Shown piece after piece: positions 46,308-50,401 of a stretch of 64,000 nt of DNA. The stretch comes from Rickettsiales bacterium. Lineage in GTDB: Bacteria > Pseudomonadota > Alphaproteobacteria > Rickettsiales > CANDYO01. Made by a program: the position numbers and the translations under genes. Each line of letters opens with the position of its first letter. Within the stretch, counting starts at the first letter, position 1. The DNA lies in the NCBI GenBank assembly GCA_049653745.1, contig JBASGW010000031.1, forward strand, positions 38,048 to 102,047, written 5' to 3'. Below the pieces are notes generated by a model, which had not been told where the DNA came from, made no database searches, and saw nothing but the letters and a program-made list of their open reading frames with translations.

Positions 46308-46383
46308 GGGTGATTAGCTCAGTTGGTAGAGCAGCTGACTCTTAATCAGCGGGTCGTGGGTTCAAACCCCTCATCACCCACCA
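46308..46383 (+). tRNA. tRNA-Lys (anticodon CUU)
   Basis: GGGTGATTAGCTCAGTTGGTAGAGCAGCTGACTCTTAATCAGCGGGTCGTGGGTTCAAACCCCTCATCACCCACCA. It folds as a cloverleaf with anticodon loop CTCTTAA and an encoded CCA. Confidence 0.9.
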
Positions 46384-46530
46384 AAAAGTTTCTAATCTAT
46401 AAATTTCCCTTGTATAAATAAATTCTTAATTTATTTGCAGGGTTTGCTACTTTTAATTGAAATCATTAAAAATATTCTGTAGCCTTACAGTAATAATTTT
46501 AATTTTTTATATAGAAAATAGAGAGAAACT

Positions 46531-48237
46531 ATGGATGCAAGGCTAAAACTATTAGTTGTTTTTTCAATAGGGGCATTTACTGCGTCACCTGGTGCAGCCA
46601 CTGACATTGTTAAGTCTAGGCCTTATACAGCTGCACTAAATGTTTATTCTCAACAAAAAAACTCTTATAACTTAAAAGATTCTTACCCTAAACAAAGTCG
46701 GGTTGAAAAAATAGAATCCAAGGATAATAATCATAAAATAATCAGGTCATTTGTTGCAAAAAAGATACAAGTATATTTTAACAACCATTTAGAAAATCTA
46801 TCTACTCTGGGTTTAAGTGATTTGGTAGGAGCAACAATCACTGAAGACAAGTTGATGGAGTTGAATATATCATTGACTAAACATTATATAAAACAAGACT
46901 ATCTTATCCCAGAAATTTCAATTGATAATAATGCAATGAATGCTAGCGCCTTAATAATTAAGGTAAAGCCGGCAACTATCTCAAATGTTATTATTATCGG
47001 CGAAGGAAAAGATAATAAATTAATGCAAGAATATGCAGAAAAATTAAAGCTACAAACTCCGGCCCGTAAATCAACAACTCAAAGAATATTGGGCTTAATG
47101 AATAAAATTCCAGGTTATGAAATTTCCTATGATTTAGTTCCTGTCACAAGTAGTTCAGCGCAAGAAAACATAGAAGTGGACTTAATTATTTTATCTTCAA
47201 AGAAAAAAGGTTCTATCTTTGCTGGTGCTGATAATTTATCATCTAATGATTTAGGTAAATATCAATTTTCTTTATTAGGAGAAAAATACACTCCTTTTAC
47301 TGATAGTGATTCGTTAGTGATTCATGGGGCAACTACTAATTATCCAGAAAGATTGAATGACATAGGTGTTGGTTATAATCATATTTTAAATACGTATGGT
47401 ACAAAAGCTGATGTTATGGTTTCTCATGCTGAAGATAATGCCACATTGAAAAATTCAGTTAAAACACCAAACACAAAAAATAATGGGATTAAAACTTCAT
47501 TGATTCAACAATTATTTCTAAATCCTAGTAATGATTTAGAAATGGAAATAGGCACTCATCACCATACTTCTACTCAATATAAGGTAAATGATAACAATGC
47601 CTCTCAGAAATATATAGTTTCTAAATATACTACAGGAGAGATGGGTTTTAGATATTTATTTAAAGATAAATTAGCAGGAAGTAATTTAGTTAATACTACA
47701 TTCACTCACGGCTTAAAAGGTACTAATAAAAATTATTTAGATACAACTCCATTGCCAAAAGATCATTTTAATAAATATAATTTTAGTTATCAAAGAGAGC
47801 AAATAATTACCGAAAATTATAGTGTTTTTGCTCATGTTATGGCTAGTTATTCTAAAGATATAATGCCTGATTCAGAACAGGCAGTACTTGGTGGCCCTGT
47901 TTTTGGCCGAGGTTATGATTTTGCAACTCTAGAAGGAAGAAGAATGACCGCCGGATCAATAGAGCTTAGATATTCTAAAATGATAGAAGAAAGTTATTTA
48001 AGTAAACTTCAACCATATTTATTTGCTGATTATGGCAATGTGAATAGAGAAAAAGCAGATACTAACGTTTCTCATTTAGAATCTTATGGTGCTGGGCTTA
48101 GGCTTAAGTTTATTAAAAATATTGATTTATCTATGGAAGTGGCTCAACCATGCAAAAAGAAATTTAGAGTTGATGGCAGCGATATAAAAGCTGATACCAA
48201 ATTTAACGTATTTATAAATAAAGTTATAGAGTTTTAG
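46531..48237 (+). CDS. ShlB/FhaC/HecB-family outer-membrane transporter (TpsB of two-partner secretion)
   Basis: 568 aa with signal peptide MDARLKLLVVFSIGAFTASPGAA and a POTRA-like region (ISNVIIIGEGKDNKLMQEYAEKL). The C-terminal barrel carries the family motifs LGGPVFGRGYDF, GSIELRY, YLFADYGNV and GAGLRLKF. Confidence 0.8.
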   Translation: MDARLKLLVVFSIGAFTASPGAATDIVKSRPYTAALNVYSQQKNSYNLKDSYPKQSRVEKIESKDNNHKIIRSFVAKKIQVYFNNHLENLSTLGLSDLVGATITEDKLMELNISLTKHYIKQDYLIPEISIDNNAMNASALIIKVKPATISNVIIIGEGKDNKLMQEYAEKLKLQTPARKSTTQRILGLMNKIPGYEISYDLVPVTSSSAQENIEVDLIILSSKKKGSIFAGADNLSSNDLGKYQFSLLGEKYTPFTDSDSLVIHGATTNYPERLNDIGVGYNHILNTYGTKADVMVSHAEDNATLKNSVKTPNTKNNGIKTSLIQQLFLNPSNDLEMEIGTHHHTSTQYKVNDNNASQKYIVSKYTTGEMGFRYLFKDKLAGSNLVNTTFTHGLKGTNKNYLDTTPLPKDHFNKYNFSYQREQIITENYSVFAHVMASYSKDIMPDSEQAVLGGPVFGRGYDFATLEGRRMTAGSIELRYSKMIEESYLSKLQPYLFADYGNVNREKADTNVSHLESYGAGLRLKFIKNIDLSMEVAQPCKKKFRVDGSDIKADTKFNVFINKVIEF

Positions 48238-48240
48238 TTT

Positions 48241-49527
48241 ATGCAAATAATCAACAGAATAAATCAAATTTTAAAAATAGCAGTACTATTAAACCTAATT
48301 TCTAGCTTTACTTGCTGGGCAACTGATAATAGCGAAAGAGCAGCGGGAGCTGAGGTTGAAAATGTAGATATGATCTCTTCTTATGAGGAAGATGACATTG
48401 ATATTGATTGGACTGATTTGCCTAAAAATATTCAACAAAGATTGATGAAGAATTTTGATTATGGACTAAATGAAGAGCCAAAACAAATAAAATTTAAACA
48501 GTTAAAAATTATAATACACCCTGAACTTAAAACTAATTTTAATAAAATTAATTTAGAAAAAGTTAGAGACCATTTTTCTACAACTAAAGAAGGAAAAAAG
48601 CTTTCAAGAACTCTAGATAAGCATATTAAAGCAAAAGCTGCCGCAGAAAGAAAGGCTAAGTTGAATAAACAACAAGCAGAACTGAATAAAAGTATGGATG
48701 ACCTAAAGATCAGAGTTAAGGAGATTACAGAAGAAGCGCAAAACACCATTGAACAATCTAGAGTTCAAAAAACAGTGCCGCAGCAGCAAACAGATAAGTT
48801 TAATAGTAATGGAGAAGTTGGATCTCCTGATCCTAAAGAGCAGAAACTAGCAGAAGGGGTAGCGAGGGCAAACAAAGAGTTTACGTCTAAGCCGGAAGAG
48901 CCAAAGACTTATAATCCCTATGATGAGAAAGAGATGGCTGCGGCAGAGAGCAAGGCTAGAGCTCAGAAGGAGTTTACGTCTAAGCCGGAAGAGCCAAAGA
49001 CTCATAACCCTAGTAATAAGGAGATAGCTGCGGCAGAGACGGTGGCTAAAGTTAAGCAAGAACCCGAGTTAAAGGAGAGGAAGCGTCAAGAGAAAATAGA
49101 AGCAGAGAAAAAGTCCGCGGCAGAGAGCAATACTAGAGCTCAGAAAGAGTTCGCGTCTAAGCCAGAGGAGCTAAACACTCATAACCCTAGTAATAAGGAG
49201 ATGGCTGCCGCTGAAGAGGGATTTAGATCTAAACGAAAAGCTGAGAAACAAAAAGCTGAGAAACAAAAAGCTGAGAAACAAAAAGCCAAGGCTAAACAAG
49301 ATACCTCATCAGAAGAGCAAAGAGCTTCAGCAAATCAAACAGAGAAAATAACTAATTCTGTTTCTGTCACTACAGGAGAAGCTAAATTCAATAATCAACA
49401 AAAAAGCAATATTCCTAGTGCAAATTCAAGTTCTAGTTATGTTCGCCATAAAGGTGATATTAAAAGTACCATTGACAGAATAAAAATAACAAATTTTGAT
49501 ATAGTAAATAATGCTTTAAGTGAATAA
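48241..49527 (+). CDS. Secreted K/E/A-rich repeat protein (occupies the position of a TpsA cargo but lacks a TPS domain)
   Basis: 428 aa with signal-like N-terminus KIAVLLNLISSFTCWA. It is highly charged throughout. There are three copies of a ~31-aa module (A.KEF[TA]SKPEE..T.NP...KE[MI]AAAE) and (KAEKQ)x3. It starts 4 nt after the TpsB stop. Confidence 0.7.
   Translation: MQIINRINQILKIAVLLNLISSFTCWATDNSERAAGAEVENVDMISSYEEDDIDIDWTDLPKNIQQRLMKNFDYGLNEEPKQIKFKQLKIIIHPELKTNFNKINLEKVRDHFSTTKEGKKLSRTLDKHIKAKAAAERKAKLNKQQAELNKSMDDLKIRVKEITEEAQNTIEQSRVQKTVPQQQTDKFNSNGEVGSPDPKEQKLAEGVARANKEFTSKPEEPKTYNPYDEKEMAAAESKARAQKEFTSKPEEPKTHNPSNKEIAAAETVAKVKQEPELKERKRQEKIEAEKKSAAESNTRAQKEFASKPEELNTHNPSNKEMAAAEEGFRSKRKAEKQKAEKQKAEKQKAKAKQDTSSEEQRASANQTEKITNSVSVTTGEAKFNNQQKSNIPSANSSSSYVRHKGDIKSTIDRIKITNFDIVNNALSE
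48847..49218 (+). repeat. Imperfect coding repeats (93-bp module, three copies; core GAGTTTACGTCTAAGCCGGAAGAGCCAAAGACT)
   Basis: Core copies begin at 48877, 48970 and 49147. The block is visibly more GC-rich than the surrounding DNA. Confidence 0.85.
49237..49281 (+). repeat. Perfect 15-bp tandem repeat x3 (AAAGCTGAGAAACAA), followed by a degenerate fourth unit
   Basis: Read directly from the sequence; encodes KAEKQ x3. Confidence 0.9.
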
Positions 49528-49549
49528 AGCTAAAATAGTTGGAGGAATA

Positions 49550-50401
49550 ATGATTGTAACAGTAGCAGAAGAAAATAAATTATTTAGAGATTTATTAAGC
49601 CCAGATATTTCTAGCCAAGAAAAAATAGTAGCTTGGCAAGTTATGTTAGATAAAGGAATGAAGAGCACCAGAACTAATGTAGAAGGTGATTCAGTTTTAG
49701 CTATTGCTGCATATATGGGTGATACAGAGCTTCTAAAATATGCTTTGGATATAGTTAAAGTAGATCCAAATATTCAGAATAAAGAAGGGCAAACACCCCT
49801 GATGCTTGCAGCAAAAGAAGGAAACTTAGCTGAAATAAATCTTTTAATAGAAAGGCAAGCTGATACGACCATGGTTGATAGACAAGGAGATAATGCTTTG
49901 GATTATGTACAAAGGCATTTGAGCCACGAGCCCAATTATATAAGTTGTTACGATGCTGTTGAAAAGGGGCAGGATGCTTTTGTTGAAAATTTAAAAGAAC
50001 AAGAAAAAGCAGCCATAGCTTTAAAAGAGCTTACCCAGAATCTTAATCTTGGAAGTAACAATATAATTGCCCCCGCAGCTGTGAATGAAACTTATTTAAA
50101 TACAACAATGCCCTCAAATTCTACTACCCCTAGGATTGAGTCACCAGCAGAGAGTAATCCTTACTTAAATTATGGCGCTGTGGGATTGGTGGCCGCTACA
50201 GCAGCATTAGGGGTGGCAAAGATACTGAGTAGAGTTTTTAAACCTACAGAATCTAAAGAAGATAAAAAAACGCAAGAAAAGAAAGAACGTGATAATTTAA
50301 TAGATGAGCTTGAATCGCCTGCATTAAACACTAGGCAGGGAGCAACTCCAGAAAAAATAAAAGGTGTAGCTTCGAGGTTAAGAGCAAGGGGAACCAAATA
50401 A
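49550..50401 (+). CDS. Ankyrin-repeat protein with C-terminal hydrophobic segment
   Basis: ANK repeats (GDSVLAIAAYMGDTELLKYAL; EGQTPLMLAAKEGNLAEINLLIERQAD; QGDNALDYV). A hydrophobic stretch YGAVGLVAATAALGVAKIL lies near the C-terminus, followed by a K/E-rich tail. The start is placed at the ATG at 49550, preceded by GGAGGA; the track starts at the GTG at 49520. Confidence 0.75.
   Translation: MIVTVAEENKLFRDLLSPDISSQEKIVAWQVMLDKGMKSTRTNVEGDSVLAIAAYMGDTELLKYALDIVKVDPNIQNKEGQTPLMLAAKEGNLAEINLLIERQADTTMVDRQGDNALDYVQRHLSHEPNYISCYDAVEKGQDAFVENLKEQEKAAIALKELTQNLNLGSNNIIAPAAVNETYLNTTMPSNSTTPRIESPAESNPYLNYGAVGLVAATAALGVAKILSRVFKPTESKEDKKTQEKKERDNLIDELESPALNTRQGATPEKIKGVASRLRARGTK

Follow-up and report, generated by a model that had tools for sequence, protein, structure and literature searches.

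A TpsB-type transporter and a partner protein without TPS domain encoded side by side in a clade of mostly aquatic Rickettsiales

Two-partner secretion (TPS) is defined by a TpsB transporter and a substrate with a TPS domain at its N-terminus, and in the current model the POTRA domains of the transporter bind the unfolded TPS domain, while folding of the substrate into a beta-helix drives its export. TPS genes of the FhaBC type have been catalogued in the Rickettsiales (PMC10847448). Here we analyse a locus in 64,000 nt of DNA from a Rickettsiales bacterium (assembly GCA_049653745.1, contig JBASGW010000031.1, positions 38,048 to 102,047; this whole stretch is called the window, and positions are counted from its first letter). 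At this locus, a gene for a TpsB-type protein is followed by an open reading frame (ORF), ORF2, whose product occupies the place of the substrate, and then by a gene for an ankyrin-repeat protein. The functional coupling of the TpsB gene and its partner gene is well supported by our data. On the present sequence and model evidence, we give about an even chance to the interpretation that the two genes constitute a TPS-like system for export or display, in which a TpsB-type transporter serves a dedicated partner that lacks the TPS domain. The two-gene module appears to be conserved in a single clade of mostly aquatic, uncultured Rickettsiales.

The system is small, comprising two genes and about 3 kb. 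If our interpretation is true, this TpsB clade would show that clients of another kind can be served by the Omp85 scaffold, and it would raise the questions of where specificity comes from and what drives the translocation of a protein that is unable to form a beta-helix. Confirmation would surprise specialists of type V secretion. It would also mean that little-studied aquatic relatives of Rickettsia possess a polymorphic, probably surface-exposed protein family, which bears on the evolution of host contact in the Rickettsiales.

Transporter and partner as a conserved gene pair

The 568-residue protein is a TpsB-type transporter, and a very divergent one, as judged by its architecture and motifs. 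The Pfam family ShlB (PF03865) matches it with 44 bits against a cut-off of 22.7, an alignment that extends over residues 224-525 and over positions 12-311 of the 311 in the profile, and the Omp85 family matches with 31 bits; PF03865 is annotated also on homologues of the protein. The sequence ends with …NKVIEF, and an aromatic last residue is typical of outer-membrane proteins. In the AlphaFold2 model, which was built on ten homologues and has a mean predicted local distance difference test (pLDDT) score of 73, two POTRA domains precede a barrel, for which about 16 long strands are seen from residue 227 to residue 567. It is this model that shows the POTRA domains of the window protein, in which Pfam itself detected none, and the Pfam family POTRA_2 weakly matches the homologues P0009-P0011 and P0013. 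In a Foldseek search against the PDB, the top matches were CdiB (6wim with E 1.6e-18 and a template modelling score of 0.55-0.58, and 6wil) and FhaC (4ql0 and 4qky). A profile of the family reaches CdiB also by sequence, at 1e-4 and aligned to the first POTRA domain of CdiB, and the protein is about 13-16% identical to the TpsB proteins of solved structure. The L6 motif VRGY/F and an F/GxDxG motif on strand beta13 are hallmarks of Omp85 and TpsB proteins (PMC5422565), and the corresponding residues are kept here: G459, R460, G461, Y462 and D500 occur in all ten TpsB sequences of an alignment (A1), and G502 in nearly all of them. The ShlB/FhaC-type assignment that had been made in the first-pass annotation from POTRA and barrel motifs is thus confirmed by the Pfam match above cut-off, the predicted structure, Foldseek and the motifs. 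The N-terminal plug helix H1, which is dispensable in FhaC (PMC5422565), is not predicted: the length of residues 24-71 would fit H1 and a linker, and this region is poorly conserved and modelled as disordered without any helix (pLDDT 20-33; below 35 over residues 1-70). Apart from H1, the transporter has the TpsB properties that we tested except for the defining one, as no substrate with a TPS domain was found next to it or elsewhere in the 64-kb window.

About a dozen homologues of this transporter were found at 41-54% identity, with uncultured Rickettsiales metagenome-assembled genomes and 'Candidatus Arcanobacter lacustris' as named sources, and more came from GTDB genomes and JGI metagenomes. 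Their contigs carry genes for a TLC ATP/ADP translocase and for VirB8/9/10 as well as an RcGTA-like cluster, in keeping with Rickettsiales. At every related locus that could be inspected (L001, L002, L003/L004, L005, L006, L008/L009, L010/L015, L011, L012, L013, L016, L017 and L018), a co-oriented ORF with a signal peptide of the AxA type begins -26 to +59 nt past the TpsB stop codon. The adjacency that was to be checked in relatives therefore recurs throughout, in about 13 divergent Rickettsiales lineages with TpsB identities of 34-54%. The flanking genes of these loci are unrelated to each other (Fic/PolA, GrpE/DnaJ/HU, GatCAB, LpxB/DnaK, TLC/CorC, virB8-10), and because the pairing is conserved despite these unrelated flanks, the data argue strongly against an orphan TpsB gene beside an unrelated gene, which the first-pass annotation had offered as its alternative. 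The partners range from 153 to more than 699 residues, no significant Pfam match, to Haemagg_act or otherwise, was obtained for any of 17 partner-type proteins, and the AxA-type signal peptidase sites of the partners are followed by acidic residues. Transporters and partners evolve at very different rates: in comparisons across lineages, identity is 38-49% for the transporters (A1) and 17-21% for the partners, which makes the latter effectively unalignable (A2). At two further loci, L019 and L020, where the TpsB proteins are 25-30% identical, a K/E/A-rich ORF ending in …DLLNE lies directly upstream of the transporter gene; these contigs have frameshifts and the ORFs no clear signal peptide, and they were given little weight.

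In the window, ORF2 starts 3 nt after the TpsB stop codon. The first-pass annotation, which had counted 4 nt, was right in placing a 428-residue signal-peptide protein in the position of a TpsA protein, and it was also right that this protein lacks the TPS hallmarks and is a K/E/A-rich repeat protein, now seen with a profile, motif and fold analysis that is negative throughout. The mature protein contains 15% K, 12.7% E and 10% A, its repeats are of about 31 residues and of the KAEKQ type, and it has no cysteine. No match to ORF2 was obtained in Pfam or NCBIfam, nor in a sequence search of the PDB. The Haemagg_act/TPS domain was found in none of seven partners at E ≤ 10 and in none of seven further partner-type proteins at E ≤ 0.01, and NPNG or NPNL motifs occur in none of 16 partner-type sequences. 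AlphaFold2, working with an alignment of three sequences, predicts helices and coil without a single strand for ORF2 (overall pLDDT 48), and the confident parts of the model are long single helices only. A cryptic TPS domain, for which structure prediction had been proposed as a check, was rejected, as Pfam at E ≤ 10, NCBIfam, motif expressions, structure prediction and the PDB sequence search were all negative. Of the TpsA features that were tested, ORF2 has the Sec signal peptide and the adjacency to a TpsB gene, and no other.

Searches for relatives of ORF2 had little yield. In a word-indexed search of 5.8 billion proteins the sole homologue was the strain variant P0002 with 63% identity, an exhaustive phmmer search of 1.84 billion cluster representatives returned nothing besides ORF2 itself, and a profile search with seven partners recovered three proteins, with low-complexity words saturating the candidate list. 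A limited search of the literature turned up no TpsB clade whose partners lack the TPS domain and bear a conserved tail; likewise, the phrases used gave no papers on TpsB substrates without a TPS domain, which is weak negative evidence.

Some of the homologous loci have features of their own. In L012 (7526-12794), the gene pair lies directly upstream of virB8-virB9-virB10 in the same orientation, and in L002, virB8 and virB9 (18065-19700) are about 5 kb from the pair; this proximity may reflect a link to the rvh type IV secretion system island, or may be a coincidence. A gene with a Fic domain (8848-9834) stands immediately upstream of the TpsB homologue in L002, in divergent orientation, and an RcGTA-like head-tail cluster (portal, S78 protease/capsid, connector, tail completion and tail genes; L004 8125-11871) about 6 kb from the pair in L004. 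In L018 (97-1804), L019 (2051-3805) and L020 (834-2589) the TpsB frame is split into two ORFs, which may be due to pseudogenisation or to frameshifts of assembly or sequencing. Remote genes with ShlB and POTRA_2 domains were found in Parvularcula and two other high-GC genomes (L014 2771-6351; L021 and L022 498-4369). Canonical TpsA neighbours had been expected at these three loci as a positive control, and there are none; the ShlB genes form divergent pairs with a gene for a protein that has a FecR domain and, in L014, also a beta-roll, and genes for a CHASE2 sensor kinase or EAL protein are close. ShlB-family transporters are thereby seen in one more setting without TpsA. With the phrases used, a literature search gave no papers on an association of ShlB, FecR and CHASE2, again a weak negative.

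Conserved tail and strain dimorphism of the partner

The partners have a C-terminal tail of about 30 residues in common, with the consensus …RHxx-I-x-S…D-[IL]…N-x-A-L-x-E-COOH. It ends with …YVRHKGDIKSTIDRIKITNFDIVNNALSE in the window, …RVRHQNSFEATRSKFRMMDLSFSNLALGE in L010, …YRPHQNTIFSTKSRMRTMDIDASNTALGE in L005, …RKRHQNDIYESVSDLEITTSLSRSNEALGR in L018 and …DTVDRLRVIDLSRSISALDE in L002, each time directly at the stop codon, and weaker versions are found in L003 (…NRALMDE) and L012 (…NEALSQ). For a leave-one-out analysis, hidden Markov models (HMMs) were made from the last 32 residues of all partners minus one and searched against 740 stop-to-stop ORFs of at least 60 residues from the window and 17 loci. 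The tail passed this analysis in five of eight cases: the held-out partner ranked first for L005 (L005a, E 7e-5), L010 (E 2e-5) and L018 (E 6e-3), and second for L002 (E 0.44) and for the window protein (E 0.043, matched at residues 399-429 of 429). All recovered matches lie at the extreme C-terminus. The protein that outranked the window protein, L005b, had not been used for training; it is encoded by an 836-codon gene directly downstream of the L005 partner gene and has the layout of a partner, with a signal peptide, an acidic stretch and the tail …HRLHQNTIYTTKSGVNSIDVGSANSGLEE. In L005 (7673-11388), partner-type genes for 358 and 836 residues thus stand in tandem after one TpsB gene, with the tail on both, and therefore one transporter can have two such partners. 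L005b furthermore has the repeat KE-S--P---TYNPYTQAEM-AGEA in common with an allele of ORF2 that is described below as allele B (BLASTP 1e-7), the similarity being weak for the window allele (E 0.12). Together, the tail motif and the shared repeats show that the neighbours of the transporter genes form one family. The tail is a candidate recognition or anchor element. Similarity of the N-terminal signal peptides was dropped as a family marker, as its leave-one-out analysis worked only within sub-clades and failed for the window protein. L005b also holds repeats that resemble beta-hairpins (G-x-x-Y-x-E-F).

ORF2 exists in two strongly different alleles within one species, allele A in the window and in L024 (SRR28062244), whose contig breaks inside the repeats, and allele B in L001 (ERR3929374). 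L001 is collinear with the window, and the two agree in every nucleotide of 46334-48251, a stretch that takes in the complete TpsB gene, and likewise in 50516-57956. From 48252, in codon 4 of ORF2, to about 50049, there are roughly 200 substitutions, affecting about 12% of the nucleotides, and this tract also covers the 5' 60% of the ankyrin gene. Several insertions or deletions distinguish the alleles, each a multiple of three nucleotides, and both ORFs are intact and of full length. Between the ORF2 alleles, the synonymous divergence (dS) is 0.32 and the ratio of nonsynonymous to synonymous divergence (dN/dS) about 0.37, and the proteins have the same residue in 79% of the aligned columns, apart from 81 columns with gaps; the ankyrin alleles have a dS of 0.11 and are 93.5% identical. 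Within the species, TpsB is 100% identical, as opposed to 63-79% for ORF2. The raised dS indicates that an allele was imported or that divergent alleles have been maintained for long, rather than recent point mutation, and the dN/dS below 1, the intact frames and the conserved tail indicate that ORF2 is a functional gene. Such a dimorphism is the pattern expected of a polymorphic exposed protein and suggests exposure, although it is not a proof of it. That the ankyrin gene varies together with ORF2 may reflect just the endpoint of a recombination tract.

A second strain-variable spot lies at 57825-60406 of the window, where 15 substitutions relative to L001 (57957-59383) fall at two tandem glycosyltransferase genes of the Gly_transf_sug type; the preceding 7.4 kb are identical in L001.

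Gene neighbourhood and the ankyrin gene

The tRNA-Lys(CTT) gene, the TpsB-type gene, ORF2 and the ankyrin gene follow each other in tandem and in the same orientation (Table 1). That the three protein genes are co-oriented, tightly spaced and begin about 150 bp past the tRNA gene had been noticed before and holds, the distance from the tRNA end to the TpsB ORF being 147 nt. A scan of the locus with promoter and terminator consensus sequences gave no more sites than expected from shuffled sequences. The window has a G+C content of about 30%, and its gene content is ordinary alphaproteobacterial housekeeping, with mutL, murE and rsmD on the 5' side of the locus and genes for a Vut_1/queuosine-precursor transporter, truA, rnpA, mscS and ccmF on the 3' side. 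No ORF in the 64 kb is longer than 889 codons, all large ones are housekeeping genes, and there is no TpsA gene among them.

Table 1. Positions of the features at the locus (window coordinates; a slash marks the signal peptidase site)
Feature	Positions	Strand	Basis or remark
tRNA-Lys (anticodon CTT)	46308..46383	+	ARAGORN; Rfam 70.4 bits
AT-rich intergenic region, 147 nt, presumed promoter and ribosome-binding-site region of the operon	46384..46530	+	sequence
TpsB-type (ShlB/FhaC/CdiB-like) Omp85 outer-membrane transporter, 568 aa	46531..48237	+	Pfam, AlphaFold2, Foldseek
TpsB signal peptide, residues 1-23 (…SPGAA/TD)	46531..46599	+	sequence
Two POTRA domains, residues ~72-147 and ~148-224, each beta-alpha-alpha-beta-beta	46744..47202	+	AlphaFold2, pLDDT 80-87
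Beta-barrel, residues ~225-568	47203..48234	+	AlphaFold2 model
L6 motif GRGY, residues 459-462	47905-47916	+	alignment A1
F-x-D-x-G motif FADYG, residues 498-502	48022-48036	+	alignment A1
ORF2 partner protein, 428 aa	48241..49527	+	sequence
ORF2 signal peptide MQIINRINQILKIAVLLNLISSFTCWA/TD (…SSFTCWA/TD), residues 1-27	48241-48321	+	sequence
ORF2 acidic stretch, residues 28-60	48322-48420	+	sequence
ORF2 long predicted helix, residues 116-177	48586-48771	+	AlphaFold2, pLDDT 76-85
ORF2 three ~31-aa repeats, KEF-SKPEE-xxT[YH]NP...AAAE	48874-49242	+	cores at residues 212, 243 and 302
ORF2 KAEKQ micro-repeat, 15 nt x3.7	49231-49286	+	sequence; followed by an S/N-rich stretch, then the tail
C-terminal tail conserved among the partners; in ORF2 SSSSYVRHKGDIKSTIDRIKITNFDIVNNALSE-COOH	49426..49524	+	tail alignment, leave-one-out HMM
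Strain-dimorphic tract, ORF2 and first ~176 codons of the ankyrin gene	48252..50049	.	comparison of alleles
Ankyrin-repeat protein, 283 aa from ATG	49550..50401	+	alternative GTG 49520, 293 aa
Ank repeats, residues ~48-135 of the GTG version	49661-49924	+	Pfam Ank_2, Ank_4, Ank_5, E 1e-11 to 1e-12 at residues 60-130
Ankyrin transmembrane-like segment GAVGLVAATAALGVAKILSRVF	50174-50242	+	hydropathy maximum 1.72, residues 219-237

The tRNA is a neighbour and not a conserved part of the module. A tRNA gene precedes the TpsB gene in two of nine contexts, and these are different tRNAs (Lys in the window and Asp in L003), no integrase gene was found, and the G+C content at the locus is within the range of the window, so that no meaning of the tRNA adjacency is supported. 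For these same reasons, a tRNA-linked genomic island was rejected. The three-gene module is not supported either, since the ankyrin gene is found at the locus only in the window lineage (the window and L001) and is absent from all other loci. As the ankyrin gene is thus limited and the tRNA linkage not conserved, the conserved unit consists of two genes and not of three.

The ankyrin protein had also been suspected to be the delivered cargo, and its sequence does not agree with this. In both strains, the ATG at 49550 has a GGAGGA Shine-Dalgarno sequence 5 nt upstream and is therefore the likelier start; the protein that begins there (MIVTVAEEN…) has no signal peptide, and has a transmembrane-like segment and a basic tail in its C-terminal part (…SRLRARGTK, net charge +5 in the last 20 residues). 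From the alternative GTG, a marginal signal peptide would result, whose residue at -1 is A in one strain and V in the other (TVA versus TVV). Without Sec export, the ankyrin protein cannot reach the TpsB transporter. Ank proteins are typical effectors of Rickettsiales (PMC10847448), and the NCBIfam models of Dot/Icm Ank proteins match via the repeats only, with scores far under their cut-offs. The ankyrin gene is a lineage-specific addition to the operon, and its product is probably not a cargo of TpsB; its effector-like features suggest that the protein may be exported by another route, either a type IV or a type I secretion system.

Elsewhere in the window, a third glycosyltransferase gene (21714-23033) matches the catalytic domain of TcdA/TcdB and is effector-like. 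A 145-codon ORF at 53471-53908, identical in L001, has no Pfam match, three AEEARV repeats and a cysteine-rich C-terminus. The gene at 24363-27032 encodes a hybrid CheA that combines Hpt, H-kinase_dim, HATPase_c and CheW with a receiver domain, which implies a chemotactic and probably motile lineage, as in 'Ca. Arcanobacter'.

Interpretation and comparison with known systems

Transport of the partner as a substrate, its exposure at the surface and the role of its tail are inferences. The partner would pass the inner membrane via Sec, with its signal peptide cut at the AxA-type site, and it would then stay unfolded in the periplasm, engage the POTRA domains of the transporter and pass through its barrel of 16 strands. 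At the cell surface, the variable repeat region would then meet the host or the environment and be kept polymorphic, and the tail could be the recognition signal, or an anchor that is left in the pore or the periplasm and holds the partner on the transporter. It is the tail that likely acts as signal or anchor because only these approximately 30 C-terminal residues are conserved. Only tentatively do we extend this to a so far unrecognised, Omp85-dependent branch of type V secretion, in which the client would be recognised or retained via a C-terminal tail instead of an N-terminal TPS domain, and by which highly polymorphic, modular, disordered or helical surface proteins would be exported that serve contact with host or environment in environmental Rickettsiales.

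Several points weigh against a TPS-like export system. BamA and TamA have Foldseek scores near those of CdiB and FhaC, and the fold alone cannot separate these subfamilies. The ORF2 model is of low confidence, and the absence of a beta-helix rests mainly on HMMs, motifs and composition. A dS of 0.32 with a dN/dS of about 0.37 is no demonstration of positive selection, and surface exposure is only suggested. The tail motif is short, the leave-one-out E-value for the window protein was only 0.043 in 740 ORFs, the tail HMM did not recover L003, L012 and L019, and the tail is missing from two complete partners, L011 and L016. Lastly, the search for a TpsA gene covered 64 kb of this genome.

Alternatively, the partner could be a periplasmic accessory protein or tether of an Omp85 protein, whose tail binds to a POTRA domain as TamB does with TamA and whose helices are a spacer or regulator similar to TolA domain II, while the transporter inserts or exports something else. 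The order of the genes is reminiscent of tamA-tamB, with an Omp85 gene followed by one whose product is hydrophobic near its N-terminus and conserved at its C-terminal end. The near-equal Foldseek scores of TamA and BamA and the dN/dS below 1 are in line with an accessory role, as is an ORF2 model in which nothing but long helices is predicted with confidence. However, no partner has a DUF490/TamB or TolA domain, ORF2 lacks a sequence match in the PDB, and the AxA-type sites with the following acidic residues indicate cleavage and not a membrane anchor. The enormous variation of the partners in size, composition and repeats is unlike a spacer of fixed span, L005 has two partners in tandem, and it is ORF2 alone that shows the strong strain dimorphism. 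No tolQ or tolR gene was found near the locus. For the TolA-like envelope protein that the first-pass annotation had named as a refutation, no similarity to TolA or TamB in sequence or domains was found, and what remains is a periplasmic accessory protein in a general sense, an explanation that we consider less probable than the TPS-like system and yet its main rival.

The other explanations carry far less weight. That the true cargo is a canonical TpsA protein encoded elsewhere and ORF2 an unrelated neighbour would gain from the FhaB/FhaC-type systems reported in several Rickettsiales families (PMC10847448) and from the 64-kb scope of our TpsA search, but is improbable in view of the adjacency in about 13 lineages despite lost flanking synteny, the operon-like spacing, the tail and repeats that make the neighbours one family, and the large window ORFs, which all have housekeeping functions. 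ORF2 could also be the degenerate remains of a TpsA protein that has lost its TPS domain, in a module that became nonfunctional in a reduced genome. The extremely fast divergence of the partners and the apparently split TpsB ORFs in L018, L019 and L020 point in this direction, but at least 12 lineages have preserved intact ORFs, the two alleles are of full length with every indel between them keeping the frame, the dN/dS indicates constraint, the transporter does not differ between strains and has retained its invariant functional motifs, and tail and repeat motif are conserved across genera, so that we regard such decay as highly improbable. Hardly credible at all is a tRNA-linked island of three genes, from which the ankyrin protein, alone or together with ORF2, would reach a eukaryotic host through the TpsB-like system. 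It could draw on the tight, co-oriented arrangement, on the strain-variable tract that spans ORF2 and the ankyrin-repeat half together, and on the effector role of Ank proteins in Rickettsiales (PMC10847448); but the ankyrin gene is absent at the locus of every other lineage, its Shine-Dalgarno start gives no signal peptide and the alternative one has a non-conserved -1 residue, and neither an integrase, nor a G+C anomaly, nor a conserved tRNA linkage is seen.

The TPS-like system that we favour agrees with canonical two-partner secretion (FhaC/FHA, ShlB/ShlA, CdiB/CdiA) in the ShlB family membership of the transporter, its two POTRA domains, its barrel and its L6 (V/G)RGY and FxDxG motifs, as well as in the tight operon with a Sec-signal partner directly beside the transporter. 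It differs in that the partner has no N-terminal TPS domain of about 250 residues, no NPNG motif and no beta-helix and is helical or disordered, in that the partners have about 150-840 residues instead of typically more than 1000 and are conserved only at the C-terminal tail, and in the missing prediction of an H1 plug helix. Because the machine is clearly an Omp85/TpsB protein, the system is not categorically new. A functional precedent for the conserved tail of a TpsB partner is the C-terminal anchor of HMW1 and HxuA, of which a short C-terminal element stays with the TpsB protein (HMW1B and HxuB, respectively) and retains the protein on the cell (PMC5422565). These anchors, however, are disulfide-bonded loops in proteins that still have the N-terminal TPS domain, and because mature ORF2 contains no cysteine, this type of anchoring cannot apply to it.

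With TamA and TamB, the locus shares the order of an Omp85-family gene and a partner gene; the partner is hydrophobic near its N-terminus and conserved at its C-terminus, which in TamB docks on POTRA domains. The transporter described here has two POTRA domains and not three and belongs to the ShlB family. Its partner is hypervariable and much smaller than TamB, carries a signal peptide that can be cleaved off, and lacks DUF490 and the beta-taco. The beta-signal of BamA clients is likewise a short common C-terminal signature recognised in the context of an Omp85 protein, but it ends with an aromatic residue and is part of a barrel strand, whereas the tail of the partners ends with A-L-x-E and no barrel is predicted for them. 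The polymorphic surface antigens of Rickettsiales, such as TSA56 of Orientia and the Msp2 family of Anaplasma, are of the barrel or autotransporter type and have no TpsB pairing. ORF2 is related to them neither by sequence nor by fold, and what it has in common with them is its richness in repeats and a strong local divergence between strains in an otherwise conserved genome.

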